DNA from: Bacteroidota bacterium
GTDB lineage: Bacteria > Bacteroidota > Bacteroidia > Palsa-948
Assembly (NCBI GenBank): GCA_016195025.1
Contig: JACQAL010000002.1
Location: 6,477-70,476, forward strand
Reading direction: 5' to 3'
Length of the DNA stretch: 64,000 nt
Position numbers and translations under genes: made by a program. Below the pieces are notes generated by a model that was not told where the DNA came from, did no database searches, and saw nothing but the letters and a program-made list of their open reading frames with translations. Below, one piece after another: positions 13,522-57,185 of the stretch; the stretch's first letter is position 1, and each line of letters begins with the position of its first letter.

Positions 13522-13908
13522 ATGCGAAAATTAATTTTCATTTTTGGATTTTTCTCTTTTCTCTTTTCCTGTAACGCCCAGAAAACTCTTCCGCAGAAAT
13601 TAAACGGAGCTTATTGCGACAAAGTTCCGGGACTCATTGCATTTTGTCTGACCTTTGATGGAGATACTTTTCATTCAGCGCTTGCTTCAATGATGTTCGG
13701 TTACACCGGAAAAGGAACGTATGCGATAAAAAATGATTCGCTCATTCTTTATTATTGCAAAGCCGACAGCGGCTATTATGTGGATGGTACAACTCCTGCA
13801 GGCACAATTACAAAATATAAAATCAAAAAGGCGACTGAGGCGGAACTTATCATTAAAGGAACAGACGAAAAAGATTTCTCAACTTTAAAAAAAGAAAAAC
13901 ATGAATAG
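13522..13908 (+). CDS. Small lipoprotein, hypothetical
   Basis: 128 aa with 'MRKLIFIFGFFSFLFSCNAQ', a signal peptide with a lipobox Cys. Its 3' end overlaps the next gene by 8 nt. Confidence 0.5.
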   Translation: MRKLIFIFGFFSFLFSCNAQKTLPQKLNGAYCDKVPGLIAFCLTFDGDTFHSALASMMFGYTGKGTYAIKNDSLILYYCKADSGYYVDGTTPAGTITKYKIKKATEAELIIKGTDEKDFSTLKKEKHE

Positions 13909-14887
13909 AAAAGAGTTTCTTCTAAAATCTTCTCTTGCAATGGGAGCTATAGGATTGGTAACCCCGTCCCTAAAGGGAGAAGAAAAAAAATTATCGGCTG
14001 TTTCACCCTTTAGGGCTGGGGCTTCATTTCCTCTTGTGATTGCCACCTGGAATAATCTTGGCGCAACCGAAGCCGCATGGAAATCAATTCAGCAAAACGG
14101 AACTGCACTTGATGGAGTGGAAGCAGGTGTGCGCGTTCCCGAAGCTGACCCGGAAAATGATTCTGTCGGTTTGGGTGGTTTGCCCGACCGTGACGGACAT
14201 GTTACGCTCGATGCCTGCATCATGGATAAAAATGGAAACGCGGGCTCGGTAACTTTTTTGGAAAATATTGTTCACCCAATTTCCGTAGCGAGAAAAGTAA
14301 TGGAGAAAACTCCGCACGTAATGCTGAGCGGTGAAGGAGCGTTTAAGTTTGCAATTGATAACGGATTTAAAAAAGAAAATCTTCTCACGGAAAAATCGAA
14401 GAAGGCATGGGAAGAATGGAAAAAAACTTCCAAGTACGAACCGATTGTGAATTATGAAAATCACGATACGATTGGAATGCTCGCGCTCGATAAAGAAAAT
14501 AATATTTCAGGCGCGTGCACAACGAGCGGGCTTTCTTATAAAATGCACGGCAGAGTAGGAGATTCACCTATTATTGGCGCGGGCATGTTTTGTGATAATG
14601 AAGTGGGCGGGGCTTGTGCAACTGGCGTGGGAGAATTTGTAATGAAGACGCTTGGCTCTTTTTTGGTTGTAGAACTTATGCGCCAGGGAAAAACTCCGCA
14701 GCAGGCATGCGAAGAAGCGATTAATCGAATCGTAAAAAAATACGATTATAAAAAATTTCAGGTTGGATATCTTGCAGTGAATAAAAACGGAGAGACGGGT
14801 TCTTATTCAATTCAAAAAGGATTTACGTATTCCCTCTTTCTGAATAATGAAAATAAAATTTTTGATTCGGATTATTTTATGCATTGA
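13901..14887 (+). CDS. N4-(beta-N-acetylglucosaminyl)-L-asparaginase / isoaspartyl peptidase (Ntn-hydrolase, asparaginase-2 family)
   Basis: 328 aa. The autoproteolytic 'HDTIGMLALD' Thr nucleophile is present, along with the conserved 'GRVGDSPIIGAG...GGACATGVGE'. The N-terminal region holds a 60 nt palindromic insert (see the repeat feature at 13962-14021). Confidence 0.8.
   Translation: MNRKEFLLKSSLAMGAIGLVTPSLKGEEKKLSAVSPFRAGASFPLVIATWNNLGATEAAWKSIQQNGTALDGVEAGVRVPEADPENDSVGLGGLPDRDGHVTLDACIMDKNGNAGSVTFLENIVHPISVARKVMEKTPHVMLSGEGAFKFAIDNGFKKENLLTEKSKKAWEEWKKTSKYEPIVNYENHDTIGMLALDKENNISGACTTSGLSYKMHGRVGDSPIIGAGMFCDNEVGGACATGVGEFVMKTLGSFLVVELMRQGKTPQQACEEAINRIVKKYDYKKFQVGYLAVNKNGETGSYSIQKGFTYSLFLNNENKIFDSDYFMH
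13962..14021 (+). repeat. 60 nt inverted-repeat (palindromic) element sitting in-frame inside the asparaginase ORF
   Basis: Arms 'CCCCGTCCCTAAAGGG' (13962-13977) and 'CCCTTTAGGGCTGGGG' (14006-14021) are reverse complements at 14 of 16 positions, with a 28 nt spacer. The element is 60 nt, which is 20 codons (TPSLKGEEKKLSAVSPFRAGA), and lies between the signal region and the conserved 'PLVIATWNN'. The same 16-mer recurs at 47326-47341. Confidence 0.6.
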
Positions 14888-28384: not shown

Positions 28385-29566
28385 ATGCCGGTAGAAATAA
28401 AAGAAGTTAAAACGAAGAGTGACGCAAAGCAGTTTGTAAATCTTCCGTTTGAAATTTACAAAGGCAATGCCTTTTGGGTGCCGCCTTTGAAGGAAGGAGA
28501 AATGAAATCGCTTTTTCCCGAGACAAATCCCGCCTTTGATTTCTGCAAAGCAAAATTCTGGCTTGCGTTTAAGAATAAGAAATGCGTTGGAAGAATTGGC
28601 GCCATCATTAACGAAGCGTACAATAAAAAAACCGGAGAGAAGTTCGCGCGCTTTTCACGGCTGGAATTCTTTGATGACGAACCCCCCCCCCACTCCCCGA
28701 AGGGGGGAACACGGGAGAGTGGATTTCCTGATTTCCCCCTTCGGGGGACAGAGGGGGCTTTGCTTTCCACTGCCGAAAACTGGGCGAAAGAGAATAATTG
28801 CATAGGAATTCACGGGCCGCTTGGCTTTGCCAACCTCGATACTCAGGGTTTGCTGGTGGAAGGTTTTGAGCATTTGCAGGCGGTGGGTTCGGTTTATCAT
28901 CACGATTATTATCACAAGCACTTGGAAAAACTGGGCTATGAAAAAGAAATTGACTGGGTGGAGTTTCGTTTAACGCTGGGGCAGCAGGCGGTGGAAAAAG
29001 CAAACCGCGGTGCCGCGCTCATTCAGAAAAGATACGGCATTGAAGTTCTTCATTTCAAAAAGATGGACGAACTTCTTCCGCATTCCGACACTATTTTTAA
29101 AATACTGAACGATGCTTTCAGCGAACTTCCGTATGTAACGGAGTTTTCTGAAAGGATGATGGAGTTCTACAAAGAAAAATATATCAAACTTCTCAATCCC
29201 GAATTTGTGAAGATGGTAAAACTAAAAGGCGAGTTGGTTGGTTTTGTAATCGGGCTTCCTTCTTTATCCCATGCGCTGCAAAAAGCAAAGGGAAAACTTT
29301 TTCCTTTGGGGTTTCTTCACCTTTTAAAAGCGCGCAAGGGCGGAGAAGTGGTGGAGCAGTTGCTTACCGGAGTGAAAAAAGAAGTGATGTCAACCGGTGC
29401 GGGAGTTATTCTGATGGCTGAACTGCAAAAAGAAATGCTGAAGAAGGGAATGAAATATATTGAGACCACAGGCATTTTTGAAACCAACCAGAATGCAATT
29501 TCCAACTGGAAAAACTACGAGCATATTCAGCATAAAAGAAAGCGGATTTACCGCAAGATGTTTTAG
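28385..29566 (+). CDS. Acyl-CoA N-acyltransferase (GNAT-fold)-like protein of unknown specificity, carrying an in-frame GC-rich insert
   Basis: 393 aa, matching a Bacteroidota family of roughly 370 aa hypothetical GNAT-like proteins. Residues about 98-125 ('DDEPPPHSPKGGTRESGFPDFPLRGTEGA') are encoded by a GC-rich palindromic element. Confidence 0.45.
   Translation: MPVEIKEVKTKSDAKQFVNLPFEIYKGNAFWVPPLKEGEMKSLFPETNPAFDFCKAKFWLAFKNKKCVGRIGAIINEAYNKKTGEKFARFSRLEFFDDEPPPHSPKGGTRESGFPDFPLRGTEGALLSTAENWAKENNCIGIHGPLGFANLDTQGLLVEGFEHLQAVGSVYHHDYYHKHLEKLGYEKEIDWVEFRLTLGQQAVEKANRGAALIQKRYGIEVLHFKKMDELLPHSDTIFKILNDAFSELPYVTEFSERMMEFYKEKYIKLLNPEFVKMVKLKGELVGFVIGLPSLSHALQKAKGKLFPLGFLHLLKARKGGEVVEQLLTGVKKEVMSTGAGVILMAELQKEMLKKGMKYIETTGIFETNQNAISNWKNYEHIQHKRKRIYRKMF
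28682..28758 (+). repeat. GC-rich double-hairpin element sitting in-frame inside the GNAT-like ORF; includes a C10 homopolymer
   Basis: A C x 10 run at 28682-28691 is followed by 'CCCCgaaGGGGGG' (28695-28707) and 'CCCCCttcGGGGG' (28735-28747). The local GC is far above the roughly 40% background. It translates without stops. Confidence 0.6.
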
Positions 29567-33021: not shown

Positions 33022-33927
33022 TCACGACACCACCGCCCAGGCAGGCATGGAAAAAGCCCCCAGTTCGCCACGCGAGTTTTTCACGCGCGCAATGTACCAG
33101 GCGCATTTGCCAAGAGAGGTATTGTCTAAAACGCTTCTGAACAAGCCGCGGCTCGCATCGCCCGAATACTGGTAATCTGCCTGCGCGGGAATGGTTTGCG
33201 GGTTTAGTGTGAGCGCTATGTACACCTGAATTTCTTTCACTCCTTTTTCCTTGCCGCGTTTTTTATGCTCCACGCTGGTTACCAAAAGCACATGCAGCAA
33301 ATGTTTTATTTCGCGTATGGCAATGCTCACTTCTTTTCTGCCGGGCGCGGCAGTGCGTGTGAGGGTGGTATCCTGCAAAAGCGTTCCTTTCTTAATGCGG
33401 AAGGTTTCGCAGTCGCTCACCGTGCCGTTGAGGGCAATTTTATCGAGCAGGTGATGCCCCGTGTTTTTATCGTGGTCATACCTGAGCGTGTTCTTAATCA
33501 GAATAAGCAGTTGGTCTTTAATGTCGGTGTTCCGGTGCCGCTTGTCGGCATACTGCGCGTAAAGCGTATCGCTCTGGCTGCGGAAGGTATGCCAGTCAGT
33601 GCTTTCCTGCCCCGTCCAGCCCCAGTTCTGGAAGCGGTTGTTTTGCAGTTGATAGTTATCGGTGTTCACCATATAAGCGGCAAACTCCGAGGGTTTGTTG
33701 GGGATGCGTGTGGTGCAGGCAATGAATGGCTCACGGACGGCAATGAGTGATTTTTGGCAGGCAATGAGCGGCTCACGGACGGCAATGAACGATTTTCGGC
33801 AGGCAATGAGCGGCTCACCGCCTGCCATAAATGCCTTGCGGTTAAGAGAACCGCGTTTTTTGAATGATTTTGCTACCTTGCGGAGTGCCTCAGCCAATGC
33901 GCGAAGCAGAGCCGAAAGGAGGCGCAA
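33022..33927 (-). CDS. Hypothetical protein in a GC-rich island. The likely true start is the internal Met at 33672 (MVNTDNYQ..., 216 aa). Upstream, the ORF translation is made of tandem nucleotide repeats.
   Basis: The minus-strand ORF is 301 aa. The first roughly 85 aa (Ala/Leu/Arg-rich, 'EPLIACRKSFIAVREPLIACQKSLIAVREPFIAC') are the translation of the 42 bp repeats, so a start at 33672 is more plausible. No family was recognised. GC content is visibly about 50% against about 40% for the flanks. Confidence 0.35.
   Translation of the reverse strand: MRLLSALLRALAEALRKVAKSFKKRGSLNRKAFMAGGEPLIACRKSFIAVREPLIACQKSLIAVREPFIACTTRIPNKPSEFAAYMVNTDNYQLQNNRFQNWGWTGQESTDWHTFRSQSDTLYAQYADKRHRNTDIKDQLLILIKNTLRYDHDKNTGHHLLDKIALNGTVSDCETFRIKKGTLLQDTTLTRTAAPGRKEVSIAIREIKHLLHVLLVTSVEHKKRGKEKGVKEIQVYIALTLNPQTIPAQADYQYSGDASRGLFRSVLDNTSLGKCAWYIARVKNSRGELGAFSMPAWAVVS
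33715..33828. repeat. Tandem direct repeats of about 42 bp, roughly 2.7 copies
   Basis: 'GCAGGCAATGAATGGCTCACGGACGGCAATGAGTGATTTTTG', then 'GCAGGCAATGAGCGGCTCACGGACGGCAATGAACGATTTTCG', then a partial 'GCAGGCAATGAGCGGCTCACCGCCTGCCAT'. Each unit contains a 21 nt sub-repeat 'GGCAATGAnnGnnTnnnGgnn'. Confidence 0.8.
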
Positions 33928-33986: not shown

Positions 33987-34049
33987 GCTGGTCGCTGGTC
34001 GCTGGTCGCTGGTCGCTGGTCGCTGGTCGCTGGTCGCTGGTCGCTGGTC
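33987..34049. repeat. Perfect heptanucleotide microsatellite (GCTGGTC) x 9
   Basis: 63 nt of uninterrupted 'gctggtc' units, about 60 nt upstream of the 33927 ORF start, in the gap between two T9SS protease genes. Confidence 0.9.
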
Positions 34050-37281: not shown

Positions 37282-37731
37282 TTATTTGTACTCAGGAAAA
37301 TCTTTTAGAAATAAATGCTTTCCCTGTTCATAGTTCATTTCGCAGCAATAATGTTTCAAGCCGTTTGTTACCGCCAAAAATTTTGTTCTGAGTTTATTCG
37401 ATATATTGTAAACGGCAACCTGATTAAAAGTTTCCTGAGAAATTTTTACATCGGGTTTTTTGCATTCCACAATCATCCACACATTTCCTTTCCGGTTGTG
37501 AATTTTTATGTCGCTTCGCTTTTGAAGTTTGTTGTACTTCAATCCTGTTTCAACGGCAATAAGCGAAGCAGGATATTTTTTTTCTTCAATTAAATACTGA
37601 ATAAAATTCTGGCGCACCCATTCTTCGGGTGTGAGAGCGACAAACTTTTTGCGAATCGCATCAAAGATTTGATTTCCTTTTTCACCTTGTCGAATTCGAA
37701 AAGAATATTCGGGAAGATTTAATTTTAACAT
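37282..37731 (-). CDS. Stand-alone protein resembling the type I restriction enzyme HsdR N-terminal domain
   Basis: 149 aa. 'EEWVRQNFIQYLIEEKKYPASLIAVETGLKYNKLQKRSDIKIHNRKGNVWMIVECKKP' fits the HSDR_N fold pattern (E...R.DI...P...IE.K), which is common as a solo roughly 150 aa protein in Bacteroidota. Confidence 0.6.
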   Translation of the reverse strand: MLKLNLPEYSFRIRQGEKGNQIFDAIRKKFVALTPEEWVRQNFIQYLIEEKKYPASLIAVETGLKYNKLQKRSDIKIHNRKGNVWMIVECKKPDVKISQETFNQVAVYNISNKLRTKFLAVTNGLKHYCCEMNYEQGKHLFLKDFPEYK

Positions 37732-37829
37732 CTACTAAATACTAATTTTTACTAATGTACTAATTTACGAATCAGCGCACGGCTGTTTTGTCTAATTCGT
37801 AAATTCGTATTAATTAGTATTTAGTAGAT
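37730..37829. promoter_or_regulatory. Divergent promoter region with an 18 bp perfect inverted repeat, each arm directly abutting a start codon
   Basis: 'ATCTACTAAATACTAATT' at 37730-37747 is the reverse complement of 37812-37829 'AATTAGTATTTAGTAGAT'. The ATG of the 37282-37731 gene (minus) and the ATG of holA (37830) follow the arms immediately. The inner sequence 'tactaatttacgaat'/'attcgtaaattcgta' extends the imperfect palindrome. Confidence 0.5.
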
Positions 37830-38927
37830 ATGGATTTTGACAAAATAATATCCGACCTCAAGAACAAAGTTTACCATCCCGTTTATTTTTTAATGGGCGA
37901 GGAGCCGTTCTTTATTGATGAAGTTTCAAATTACATAGAGAAAAATATTCTGGATGATTCCGAAAAAGAATTCAACCAGACAGTTTTATACGGAGGCGAG
38001 ACAAACATTCTGCAGGTCATCGGCGAAGCCAAGAGTTATCCCATGATGAGCAATTACCGCGTGGTGATTATCAAGGAAGCGCAGAACATGAAAGACCTTG
38101 TGCCGAAGGAAAAATCAGACCCCTCTCCATCTCTCCCCAAAGGGGAGAGGGTTGAGCGCGCAAACTCCTCCCCTTCGGGGAGGTCGGGTGGGGTTGTTCA
38201 TCCGCTAGAAAATTATCTCGACAATCCCCAAAAGACAACCATTCTTGTTTTCTGCCATAAGTACAAAACCATTGACATGCGCACAGGGTTCGCAAAAAAT
38301 CTTTCCAAGCGCGCAGTGGTTTTGAAATCGGATACGCTTTACGATTACAAAGTGCCGAAGTGGATTGAAGAATTTATAGCGGATAAAAAATATTCCATTG
38401 AGCCGCGTGCGAGCCAACTGCTCACGGAATTTCTTGGAAATGATTTGAGCAAGATTGCCAACGAACTTGAAAAACTTTTCTTAAACATTCCTGAGAAAAG
38501 CAAAATTACTTCCGACCACATTCAAAAATACATCGGCATCAGCAAGGAGTACAACAATTTTGAATTGCAGGATGCCATTGGGAAAAAAGATTCGCTGAAA
38601 GCAAACCGCATCATCAATTATTTTTCTGCCAATACAAAGGATAATCCCATGGTGGTAACGGTTGCTTCGCTGGCAGGGTATTTCAGCAAGATGCTGCTGT
38701 ATCATATGGTAAAAGGAAAACCGCAGAATGAAATTGCAGCAACTCTCAAAGTGCCTCCGTTTTTTGTGAAGGATTATGCATCGGCTTCAAATAATTATCC
38801 TCCCGGAAAAATTTTCAGCGCCATTTCTCTCCTCCGCGAATACGATATGAAATCAAAGGGCTATGAAAATTCAAACATAGATGAAGGAGAACTGATGAAA
38901 GAAATGGTGTATAAAATAATGCATTGA
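37830..38927 (+). CDS. holA: DNA polymerase III delta subunit, carrying an in-frame GC-rich insert
   Basis: 365 aa. 'VYHPVYFLMGEEPFFIDEVSNYIEKNIL...VLYGGETNILQVIGEAKSYPMMSNYRVVIIKEAQNMKD' is the delta-subunit N-terminal clamp-loader fold. Residues about 95-125 ('SDPSPSLPKGERVERANSSPSGRSGGVVHP') are the inserted element. Confidence 0.8.
   Translation: MDFDKIISDLKNKVYHPVYFLMGEEPFFIDEVSNYIEKNILDDSEKEFNQTVLYGGETNILQVIGEAKSYPMMSNYRVVIIKEAQNMKDLVPKEKSDPSPSLPKGERVERANSSPSGRSGGVVHPLENYLDNPQKTTILVFCHKYKTIDMRTGFAKNLSKRAVVLKSDTLYDYKVPKWIEEFIADKKYSIEPRASQLLTEFLGNDLSKIANELEKLFLNIPEKSKITSDHIQKYIGISKEYNNFELQDAIGKKDSLKANRIINYFSANTKDNPMVVTVASLAGYFSKMLLYHMVKGKPQNEIAATLKVPPFFVKDYASASNNYPPGKIFSAISLLREYDMKSKGYENSNIDEGELMKEMVYKIMH
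38120..38183 (+). repeat. GC-rich double-hairpin element sitting in-frame inside holA
   Basis: 'CTCTCCCCaaaGGGGAGAG' (38131-38149) and 'CCTCCCCttcGGGGAGG' (38167-38183), with 'cccctctcc' also at 38120-38128. There is no stop codon. Confidence 0.6.
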
Positions 38928-39194: not shown

Positions 39195-39340
39195 AAACAT
39201 TCCCTTATGCAGCAGGAAGTTTTAGTAGTTGCACAGCAAGTTTTAGTTGAGCGCGCCAAACATTGCCTTATGCAGCAGGAAGTTTTAGCAGTTATACAGC
39301 AAGTTTTATTTCAACCTGCCGAACATTGCTTGCTGCGCGC
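39195..39340. repeat. Tandem direct repeat of about 63 nt (about 2.5 copies) with an internal periodicity of about 21 nt, inside a 530 bp intergenic region
   Basis: Unit 1 is 'AAACATTCCCTTATGCAGCAGGAAGTTTTAGTAGTTGCACAGCAAGTTTTAGTTGAGCGCGCC'. Unit 2 is 'AAACATTGCCTTATGCAGCAGGAAGTTTTAGCAGTTATACAGCAAGTTTTATTTCAACCTGCCG'. Unit 3 is partial. The sub-motif 'GCAGCA(G)GAAGTTTTAG' recurs four times. Confidence 0.8.
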
Positions 39341-57024: not shown

Positions 57025-57129
57025 GAGCACTCCTCCGGAGCGCAGGAGCACTCCTCCGCTCGTGAGGAACACTCCTCCGCTCGTGAGGAACACTCCTCCG
57101 CTCGTGAGGAACACTCCTCCGCTCGTGAG
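57025..57129. repeat. Tandem 21 bp repeat x 5 in the 680 bp gap upstream of the SprB-repeat genes
   Basis: Copy 1 is 'GAGCACTCCTCCGGAGCGCAG' (diverged). Copy 2 is 'GAGCACTCCTCCGCTCGTGAG'. Copies 3 to 5 are 'GAACACTCCTCCGCTCGTGAG', then 'GACACGCC'. Confidence 0.85.
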
Positions 57130-57185
57130 GACACGCCAAATCGTTTGAGAATTCTTCTCAAACGGAGTAAGAGGTATTTCAGGAG

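Follow-up and report, generated by a model that had tools for sequence, protein, structure and literature searches.

The Rickettsia palindromic elements (RPEs; Ogata et al. 2000; reviewed in PMC10969869 and PMC2229807) are short palindromes of 105-150 bp that form a long stem-loop, occur in many dispersed copies and lie in frame within unrelated conserved genes, where they are translated as tolerated extra peptides and encode no transposase. They are found in Rickettsia (Alphaproteobacteria) only, and a 2024 review of MITEs (transposable elements of miniature size with inverted repeats) describes in-frame palindromic elements outside this genus as only "conceivable" (PMC10969869). Here we describe an 81-nt GC-rich palindromic element inside a gene for a GNAT-family acetyltransferase from a Bacteroidota metagenome-assembled genome (MAG; assembly GCA_016195025.1, contig JACQAL010000002.1, positions 6,477 to 70,476 of the forward strand). 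We refer to this whole stretch of 64,000 nt as the window. The element is probably an in-frame copy of an RPE-like, MITE-like palindromic mobile element, tolerated as a loop of the host protein and a probable relative of longer units that encode a DUF559 nuclease. RPEs are the closest known kind. The GNAT element resembles them in behaviour and is not a member, as it is shorter, resides in a Bacteroidota host and has no sequence relationship to the RPE families. It also differs in being built from C-run and G-run mini-palindromes, in being GC-rich in low-GC genomes, in encoding a Pro/Gly-rich peptide and in having a candidate protein-coding partner (DUF559) with the same repeats.

Classical MITEs provide a second comparison. 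ERIC, the 107-bp form of Correia/NEMIS and YPAL (PMC2229807) are likewise small, bounded by terminal inverted repeats (TIRs), devoid of coding capacity, occasionally resident in frame and, as is probable for the GNAT element, derived from or dependent on a longer element with the same repeats. Longer units with repeats matching those of the GNAT element exist in other genomes, and these encode a DUF559 nuclease and no known transposase. However, classical MITEs descend from insertion sequences with DDE transposases, are flanked by evident target-site duplications (often TA) and lie mostly between genes, whereas here there is no convincing duplication, the partner is a PD-(D/E)XK Vsr-like nuclease, and coding sequence is not avoided. 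The third comparison is with EDxHD or Vsr-like homing endonucleases, since DUF559 is homologous to I-Bth0305I (PMC3239194) and DUF559 units recur at the same MetH-linker site in divergent hosts. In the short form, related copies are found at one shared GNAT site, both in the window and in locus L003, although the insert-free orthologs P0002 and P0004 are closer to the window protein. Known EDxHD enzymes reside in group I introns or between the halves of split inteins ('fractured genes'), and splicing restores the product (PMC2677866), whereas the units described here are read through in frame via repeat-encoded linkers, with no detectable intron or intein. The GNAT element differs further in that it has no open reading frame (ORF) and no endonuclease of its own; the nuclease is present in the long relatives only. 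Fungal mitochondrial GC clusters and double-hairpin elements are also GC-rich, apparently mobile palindromes in AT-rich genomes; they are sometimes in frame, as in yeast var1, and sometimes lie beside free-standing endonuclease ORFs. They belong to eukaryotic organelles and have no sequence relationship to the GNAT element, so that this likeness is by analogy only.

The GNAT element (Table 1) reads GAACCCCCCCCCCACTCCCCGAAGGGGGGAACACGGGAGAGTGGATTTCCTGATTTCCCCCTTCGGGGGACAGAGGGGGCT and encodes residues 99-125 of the host protein (EPPPHSPKGGTRESGFPDFPLRGTEGA). Its GC content is 66.7%, compared with 42.1% across the window. The first-pass annotation had reported an in-frame GC-rich segment at this place, and its sequence, coordinates, frame and peptide are all as described there. 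It had also interpreted the segment as a double hairpin with a UUCG tetraloop, a view that we revise, as these are not independent tetraloop hairpins. The motifs CCCCGAAGGGG and CCCCTTCGGGG are mutually reverse-complementary, so that what had looked like two "hairpins" is one imperfect palindrome, of which they form the two arms, each arm containing a mini-palindrome. Folding positions 28670-28770 yields one long hairpin with 26-nt arms as the minimum-energy structure (-52.7 kcal/mol; z-score of -3.7 relative to dinucleotide shuffles), as opposed to -15.3 kcal/mol for the two small hairpins alone. The expectation of strong local mRNA structure in mid-ORF thus holds up as a prediction of a very stable transcript fold. 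The palindrome also exceeds chance expectation. The core motif occurs four times in the window (0.5 expected), and both arms fit a 22-nt family arm consensus, GCCCCCTAACCCCCGAAGGGGG, with 4 errors (approximately 0 expected); 19 of 20 shuffled windows had no match to this consensus at the same tolerance. Runs of seven to ten C or G are typical of the outer arms in this family, for example a G10 run in L003. The C10 tract of the GNAT element could be a slippage or frameshift hotspot, or a site of assembly error.

Table 1. Coordinates of the GNAT element, its host gene, related copies and tandem repeats; positions are those of the window unless a locus is named.
Feature	Location	Strand	Description
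GC-rich palindromic element in GNAT-like gene	28679..28759	+	81 nt, 27 codons, in frame
C10 run	28682-28691		Outer part of left arm, mid-ORF
Left arm (TIR-like) CCCCCCCCACTCCCCGAAGGGGGGAA	28684..28709	+	Inverted repeat; holds most of the C10 run
Inner mini-palindrome CCCCGAAGGGG	28695-28705		Inside left arm
CCCCGAAGGGGGG	28695-28707		
Loop/spacer CACGGGAGAGTGGATTTCCTGA	28710..28731	+	Between the arms; partly self-paired in the predicted fold
Right arm (TIR-like) TTTCCCCCTTCGGGGGACAGAGGGGG, then CT(T)	28732..28757	+	77% reverse complement of left arm
CCCCCTTCGGGGG	28735-28747		
Host gene, GNAT-family (YghO-like) acetyltransferase	28385..29566	+	393 amino acids; PF00583
Second copy, in holA	38118..38195	+	78-nt palindrome, 65% GC; in frame in holA ORF 37830..38927; different subfamily
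Probable third copy, decayed palindrome AACCCCGTCCCTAAAGGGAGAA...CACCCTTTAGGGCTGGGGCTT	13951..14032	+	In frame in Asparaginase_2 ORF 13901..14887
MetH ORF with embedded DUF559 unit	L121:643-5010	-	In frame: left arm with nested second element, DUF559 (PF04480), subterminal palindrome, right arm
Tandem repeat (GCTGGTC)x9	33987-34049		Perfect
Tandem repeat, 21-nt unit	57044-57131		4.2 copies, 98% matches
Tandem repeat, 42-nt unit	33715-33818		2.5 copies
Tandem repeat, 63-nt unit	39195-39329		2.1 copies

The host protein is 100% identical to a protein of the MAG Bacteroidetes bacterium (HY063_00195; P0001, NCBI), and typical GNAT orthologs have 372 residues. The segment is absent from the closest orthologs, P0002 and P0004, which are 84-85% identical overall and 89-90% identical over aligned columns; it is also absent from all distant orthologs, and loci L001, L002 and L005 are insert-free. 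At the DNA level the empty site reads GATGAT-GCTGAAGTAATTTCAACA-TTAATC. In the window, 81 nt stand in place of approximately 18 nt encoding AEVIS[T/K], which lengthens the gene by 63 nt net (21 codons). The first-pass annotation had the segment splitting an otherwise contiguous protein, and it is indeed an insertion that interrupts a conserved protein; the split is not a simple one, because about 18 nt were replaced. Its proposed comparison with orthologs had a similarly divided outcome: homologs in other Bacteroidota orders are empty at the site, but some close orthologs (P0026, P0003, P0005 and P0031) are occupied. These same-position segments of close orthologs are lineage-restricted GC-rich insertions and not a conserved feature.

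The occupied orthologs are not all alike. The element that P0026 (locus L003) has at the same site, here called site 1, is clearly related to the GNAT element; the two loops are approximately 72% similar in an alignment. In this copy (L003:3690-3830), an extra small palindrome, CCTGCCTGCCGGACAGGCAGG, is nested in the 5' C-run. At site 1 of P0003, P0005 and P0031 lies a short GC-rich insert of another kind, which in P0003 (L208:780-830) reads GGTTCGCCCTTCGACTCCGCTCAGGGTGACAAGCTCACCACAGGTTCT, encodes GSPFDSAQGDKLTTGS and forms only a weak 5-bp hairpin. Inserts of this type may represent a second repeat family at the same permissive site. At a second GNAT site, between VKMV and K, related or degenerate Pro/Gly-rich inserts occur in P0024, P0026, P0035, P0039, P0040, P0031 and P0022. 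The insertion at site 2 in L003 is clean, with a length of 84 nt (28 codons) and a GG duplication at most. Across close orthologs, related elements are therefore present or absent at two GNAT sites, in varying states of decay. P0002 and P0004, which have no insert, resemble the window protein more closely than P0026 does, and they still have the AEVIS codons of the ancestral state; the shared occupancy of site 1 therefore reflects independent hits or transfer of an allele.

In an AlphaFold model of the host protein, the segment lies between a strand (residues 87-95) and a helix (residues 122-136), and residues 100-118 are modelled as coil with confidence (pLDDT) below 50. The encoded 27 residues are thus predicted to be a disordered surface loop. 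We infer translation through the element from its frame and from the avoidance of stop codons. A miniature palindromic element without coding capacity would have landed in the GNAT gene and survived there, its reading frame persisting because the length of 81 nt is in frame and the arms are stop-free in the frame used. It would now be translated as a Pro/Gly-rich disordered loop between the β-strand and the helix. Most likely the element does nothing useful at present, and the strong DNA or RNA hairpin is a by-product of its terminal inverted repeats.

The alternative that the structure is adaptive, kept by selection as a translational pause, an internal attenuator or a phase-variable C10 tract, appears very improbable to us. 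The predicted fold has high stability (-52.7 kcal/mol, z = -3.7), the place of insertion is between elements of secondary structure, and the C10 run could slip; a promoter and terminator scan also returned a terminator-like match at 28736-28757, followed by CTTTGCTTTC. However, the closest orthologs work without the element, similar elements are found in unrelated genes that share neither function nor position of the element, the arms show decay (77% complementarity), and orthologous copies are degenerate. The right-arm terminator was rejected as a functional signal because the number of such matches is within chance (4 found, 2.2 expected). Rfam covariance models run over the whole window gave no family at the gathering score, and hence no known structured RNA and no intron. 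Nothing suggests that mRNA structure is the purpose of the element.

Elements of this family are widespread in Bacteroidota. A scan of one genome per species with the pattern CCCCRAAGGGG-N15-45-CCCCTTYGGGG gave at least 120 loci, from which the family counts given here are drawn; the samples are small (21 short copies) and consist of metagenome fragments. Among the matches listed, the carriers are low-GC Cytophagales, Saprospiraceae, Bernardetiaceae, Raineyaceae, Arcicella and Flavobacterium. Many listed matches in high-GC Planctomycetota, Acidobacteriota and other groups are unrelated hairpins of the GCCCCGAAGGGGCGACAGAA type and were left out of the family. The low-GC Bacteroidota loci have in common the extended consensus AAGCCCCC-yAr-CCCCC-GAA-GGGGG-A ... 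T-CCCCC-TTC-GGGGG-TTA-GGGGGCTT, with an arm consensus of GCCCCC-N3-CCCCC-GAA-GGGGG and element lengths of 60-85 nt. The left arm of the GNAT element is 95% identical over 20-21 nt to arms in L121 and L014. Among 21 two-armed copies from 16 loci, 76% lie in open frames of at least 200 codons, compared with 81% for random positions; coding sequence is therefore not avoided, and the frames stay open. The copies have one dominant reading frame, which encodes SPLTPEGGT...PPSGxGGL. Their hosts are unrelated to one another, some of them essential, and include MetH, valyl-tRNA synthetase (ValRS), PurH, a thiamine pyrophosphate enzyme, a PMT_2 protein, and Type ISP and Eco57I-like restriction-modification enzymes, with two to three copies in some single host genes. 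The identification of the P0125 host fragment as a helicase was not confirmed by Pfam and is not used as evidence. In locus L109 (833-4393, + strand), a stop-to-stop frame joins an RloB-like domain (residues 28-227) to a valyl-tRNA synthetase that also carries at least two short palindromic elements. This RloB-like domain may be an in-frame nuclease-like passenger, or an upstream gene without an intervening stop.

Two further in-frame palindromes occur in the window itself. The one in holA, which encodes the δ subunit of DNA polymerase III, has arms of the CCCTCTCCCCAAAGGGGAGAGGG type and encodes DPSPSLPKGERVERANSSPSGRSGGV. The DNA_pol3_delta Pfam domain is matched in two stretches, split by the copy. 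Comparison with a solved δ subunit (PDB 3zh9_B), in which 3 residues correspond to holA residues 97-122, confirmed that the copy is an insertion relative to this structure. The holA element shares 94% identity across 31 nt with the DUF559 unit of L144, at the right terminal repeat of that unit. Intergenic CCCTCTCCCCAAAGGGGAGAGGG repeats in Enterobacter loci (L011, L017, L031, L081, L100 and L125) are identical to the holA-element arm over 21-23 nt, which could reflect a shared family or convergence of simple palindromes. The decayed palindrome in the asparaginase gene has 31-nt arms that are 74% complementary, a fold of -35.8 kcal/mol and the cores CCCTAAAGGG and CCCTTTAGGG, ending in GGGGCTT. 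It encodes ...TPSLKGEEKKLSAVSPFRAGA... near the N-terminus, after a Tat-like signal region and before the Pfam domain starts at residue 55. It gave no blastn match to other loci; on its shared architecture alone, it is probably a third copy of the family. All three window copies encode peptides of the type x-P/L-K-G ... S-P-F/S-x-G.

These additional copies bear on the possibility that the GNAT element is an assembly or sequencing artefact, such as a chimeric read or a homopolymer error, which we regard as negligible. The sequence does come from a MAG, and a C10 homopolymer combined with strong palindromy is error-prone. Against this, the reading frame is intact, two further copies are present on the same contig, and independently assembled metagenomes and genomes from JGI, ENA and NCBI contain related elements too, at this site and elsewhere.

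The link to DUF559 comes from units that combine a gene of this family with the same repeats. In L121, such a unit is embedded in frame in a MetH ORF (Table 1). In L060, a DUF559 cassette lies between two full palindromes and is read through inside an ORF of 898 codons, and in L099 a stand-alone DUF559 gene lies between a full element (left) and an arm (right). Several database homologs of DUF559 are fused to MetH fragments via arm-type peptides, and a regular-expression search found arm-type peptides in 15 of 120 DUF559 proteins. We also assembled an unbiased, if small, sample of 80 metagenomic DUF559 loci, chosen by protein similarity alone with palindromes disregarded. C4+N3-4G4+ cores lie within 200 nt of the DUF559 gene in 47 of these 80 loci, on both sides in 31, at a density of 2.45 per kb near the gene and 0.12 per kb elsewhere (a 20-fold enrichment). 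The two flanks are inverted repeats, the left one scoring 0.56 against the reverse complement of the right one, versus 0.17 when shuffled. Measured from arm to arm, the unit has a median length of 459 nt.

More than half of these units (43 of 80) open in frame into flanking coding sequence, 32 on both sides and 11 on one side. The hosts of embedded units are MetH, at three distinct sites, ValRS (L199), IspG/GcpE (L130) and a polysaccharide-synthesis protein (L184). A single MetH linker, between the B12-binding_2 and B12-binding domains, holds 14 of the 80 units, and the host flanks there are only 54-79% identical. Units embedded in MetH are found in L121, L153, L157, L161, L166, L167 and nine other loci. 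In Pfam searches, the embedded units gave host domains and DUF559 only, with no Hint or intein domain, and the frame runs on without a break. A profile search with DUF559 hit PDB 3hrl (E=4e-33) and 3r3p (E=2e-6), the latter being I-Bth0305I, a characterised homodimeric Vsr-like homing endonuclease with a pseudopalindromic target (PMC3239194).

The short elements share sequence with the units. The right arm of the GNAT element shares 96% identity across 24 nt with the right terminal repeats that lie 29 nt downstream of DUF559 in L136 and L141, and it also matches L153. In L121, the short copies have loops (TTGACGTATTAACGTCA, encoding ..D-x-x-TSK..) that match the DUF559 ORF at its 3' end (CTTGACACAATAACGTCAAA, ..LDTITSK) together with the subterminal palindrome. 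A loop that holds the last DUF559 codons is what would be expected of an internal-deletion derivative. We therefore favour the short elements as non-autonomous relatives (TIR-loop-TIR) of a DUF559 unit of approximately 460 nt encoding a Vsr-like nuclease of the EDxHD type. In the region of ycjD in Escherichia coli K-12 (L207, NC_000913.3 1351040-1351760), the DUF559 gene ends in ...RRSPSP* inside an arm-like palindrome; downstream are an approximately 47-nt duplicate of the ycjD 3' end and a CCCCTCGCCCCTCTGGGGAGAGGGTTAGGGTGAGGGG repeat, and upstream a GC-rich arm is missing. The arrangement hints that the link between DUF559 and palindromes extends to Enterobacteria.

The palindromes could instead be independent of DUF559 and moved by another enzyme or by hairpin-driven errors of replication or repair, with DUF559 genes as secondary parasites that home into the loops. 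Short copies far outnumber those bearing DUF559, which was found in 4 of the 120 palindrome-selected loci among the matches listed, and the gene is absent from the window. The L060 cassette is flanked by two complete palindromic elements and not by single arms, and the nested palindromes of L003 and L121 show that palindromes are themselves insertion targets. The organization of most DUF559 loci argues otherwise: they have exactly one arm per side, and in the 14 loci examined the arms lie 1-48 nt away from the ORF and the units are compact (420-561 nt). The L121 short-copy loop, with its last DUF559 codons, is likewise as expected of internal deletion, and none of the loci examined showed another enzyme for mobilisation. 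On balance we consider this secondary-invader explanation unlikely.

Repetitive extragenic palindromic (REP) sequences and REPINs, the doublets that they form, offer another route, in which the element would be mobilised as single-stranded DNA by a REP-associated tyrosine transposase (RAYT), a Y1 transposase. REPs are short GC-rich palindromes, often in inverted doublets and sometimes recorded inside ORFs (PMC3733652), and the doublet of inverted mini-palindromes that folds into a longer hairpin in the GNAT element resembles a REPIN. However, REPs are defined by GTAG or CGTC tags and Y1 transposases and are mostly extragenic (PMC3733652), whereas neither end tag is present in the GNAT element or in the family consensus. 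No Y1 transposase was found among the 46 window ORFs or seen beside copies in other loci, the enzyme associated with the repeats is DUF559, and the family does not avoid coding sequence. We thus think it quite improbable that the GNAT element is of the REP/REPIN type.

Returning to the favoured reading, in which the GNAT element is a relative of the DUF559 units, we infer mobilisation by DUF559 from the shared repeats. The DUF559 endonuclease would be the best candidate for making the DNA breaks that allow the two forms to spread, through homing at conserved sites and through a less specific route in the case of the scattered short copies. In both forms the repeats would play a double role, providing DNA recognition or hairpin structure and coding for flexible linkers. 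Linker-coding repeats would therefore allow residence in conserved genes without splicing, replacing the intron or intein that homing endonucleases otherwise need (PMC3239194). It is quite possible, though we stop short of calling it probable, that these units constitute an undescribed class, in which a Vsr-like endonuclease gene within translated hairpin repeats lives in essential genes without an intron or intein and sheds TIR-only derivatives across Bacteroidota, and possibly other phyla, including the ycjD repeats. A literature search, from which subscription journals were mostly outside coverage, found no paper tying DUF559 to terminal repeats and no description of GC-rich in-frame palindromes in Bacteroidota.

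Several observations weigh against this reading. None of the 46 window ORFs encodes DUF559, a transposase or a RAYT, a result that applies to the window only. The three window copies are unlike one another in their arms and loops; they are old and imperfect, with 74-77% arm complementarity. The case for translation through the GNAT element draws on frame conservation. There is no clear target-site duplication, with GG at most at site 2 of L003 and an 18-nt replacement at GNAT site 1. A homing endonuclease accounts for the recurrence at MetH; for the scatter of short copies in unrelated genes, it is not a sufficient explanation. The association between DUF559 and the repeats does not reveal a direction, so that DUF559 genes could be secondary invaders of pre-existing palindromes. 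Finally, the family statistics come from small samples of metagenome fragments, 21 short copies and 80 DUF559 loci.

The 46 window ORFs of at least 90 amino acids have a gene content typical of free-living Bacteroidota and include no mobile-element genes. They encode many type IX secretion system cargo proteins (Por_Secre_tail, CHU_C and SprB repeats), PorP/SprF, elongation factor P, MurB and ribosomal protein S16, and an alpha-2-macroglobulin gene adjoins a PBP1C-like gene. Four tandem repeats were also found (Table 1). The heptamer array lies within a 110-residue ORF that has no Pfam match, where gain or loss of units would shift the frame. Between a divergent gene with an HSDR_N_2 domain (37282..37731, - strand) and the holA start codon, the gap is filled by an AT-rich inverted repeat of 36 nt (37730-37829; 86% complementary, 28-nt spacer), which may be an operator or promoter structure.

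In-frame palindromic selfish DNA, so far viewed as a peculiarity of Rickettsia, has, on this evidence, a sequence-unrelated, GC-rich counterpart that is spread through free-living Bacteroidota and resides in housekeeping enzymes. For genome annotation, such elements would explain odd Pro/Gly-rich inserts, split Pfam domains and "fusion" proteins in MAGs. For protein evolution, they would be a ready source of surface loops and domain insertions. DUF559 would be the first candidate enzyme partner for elements of this kind, which would give this large, uncharacterised family a testable role. If the DUF559 link is true, a homing-type nuclease invades essential genes by means of linker-encoding repeats instead of splicing.

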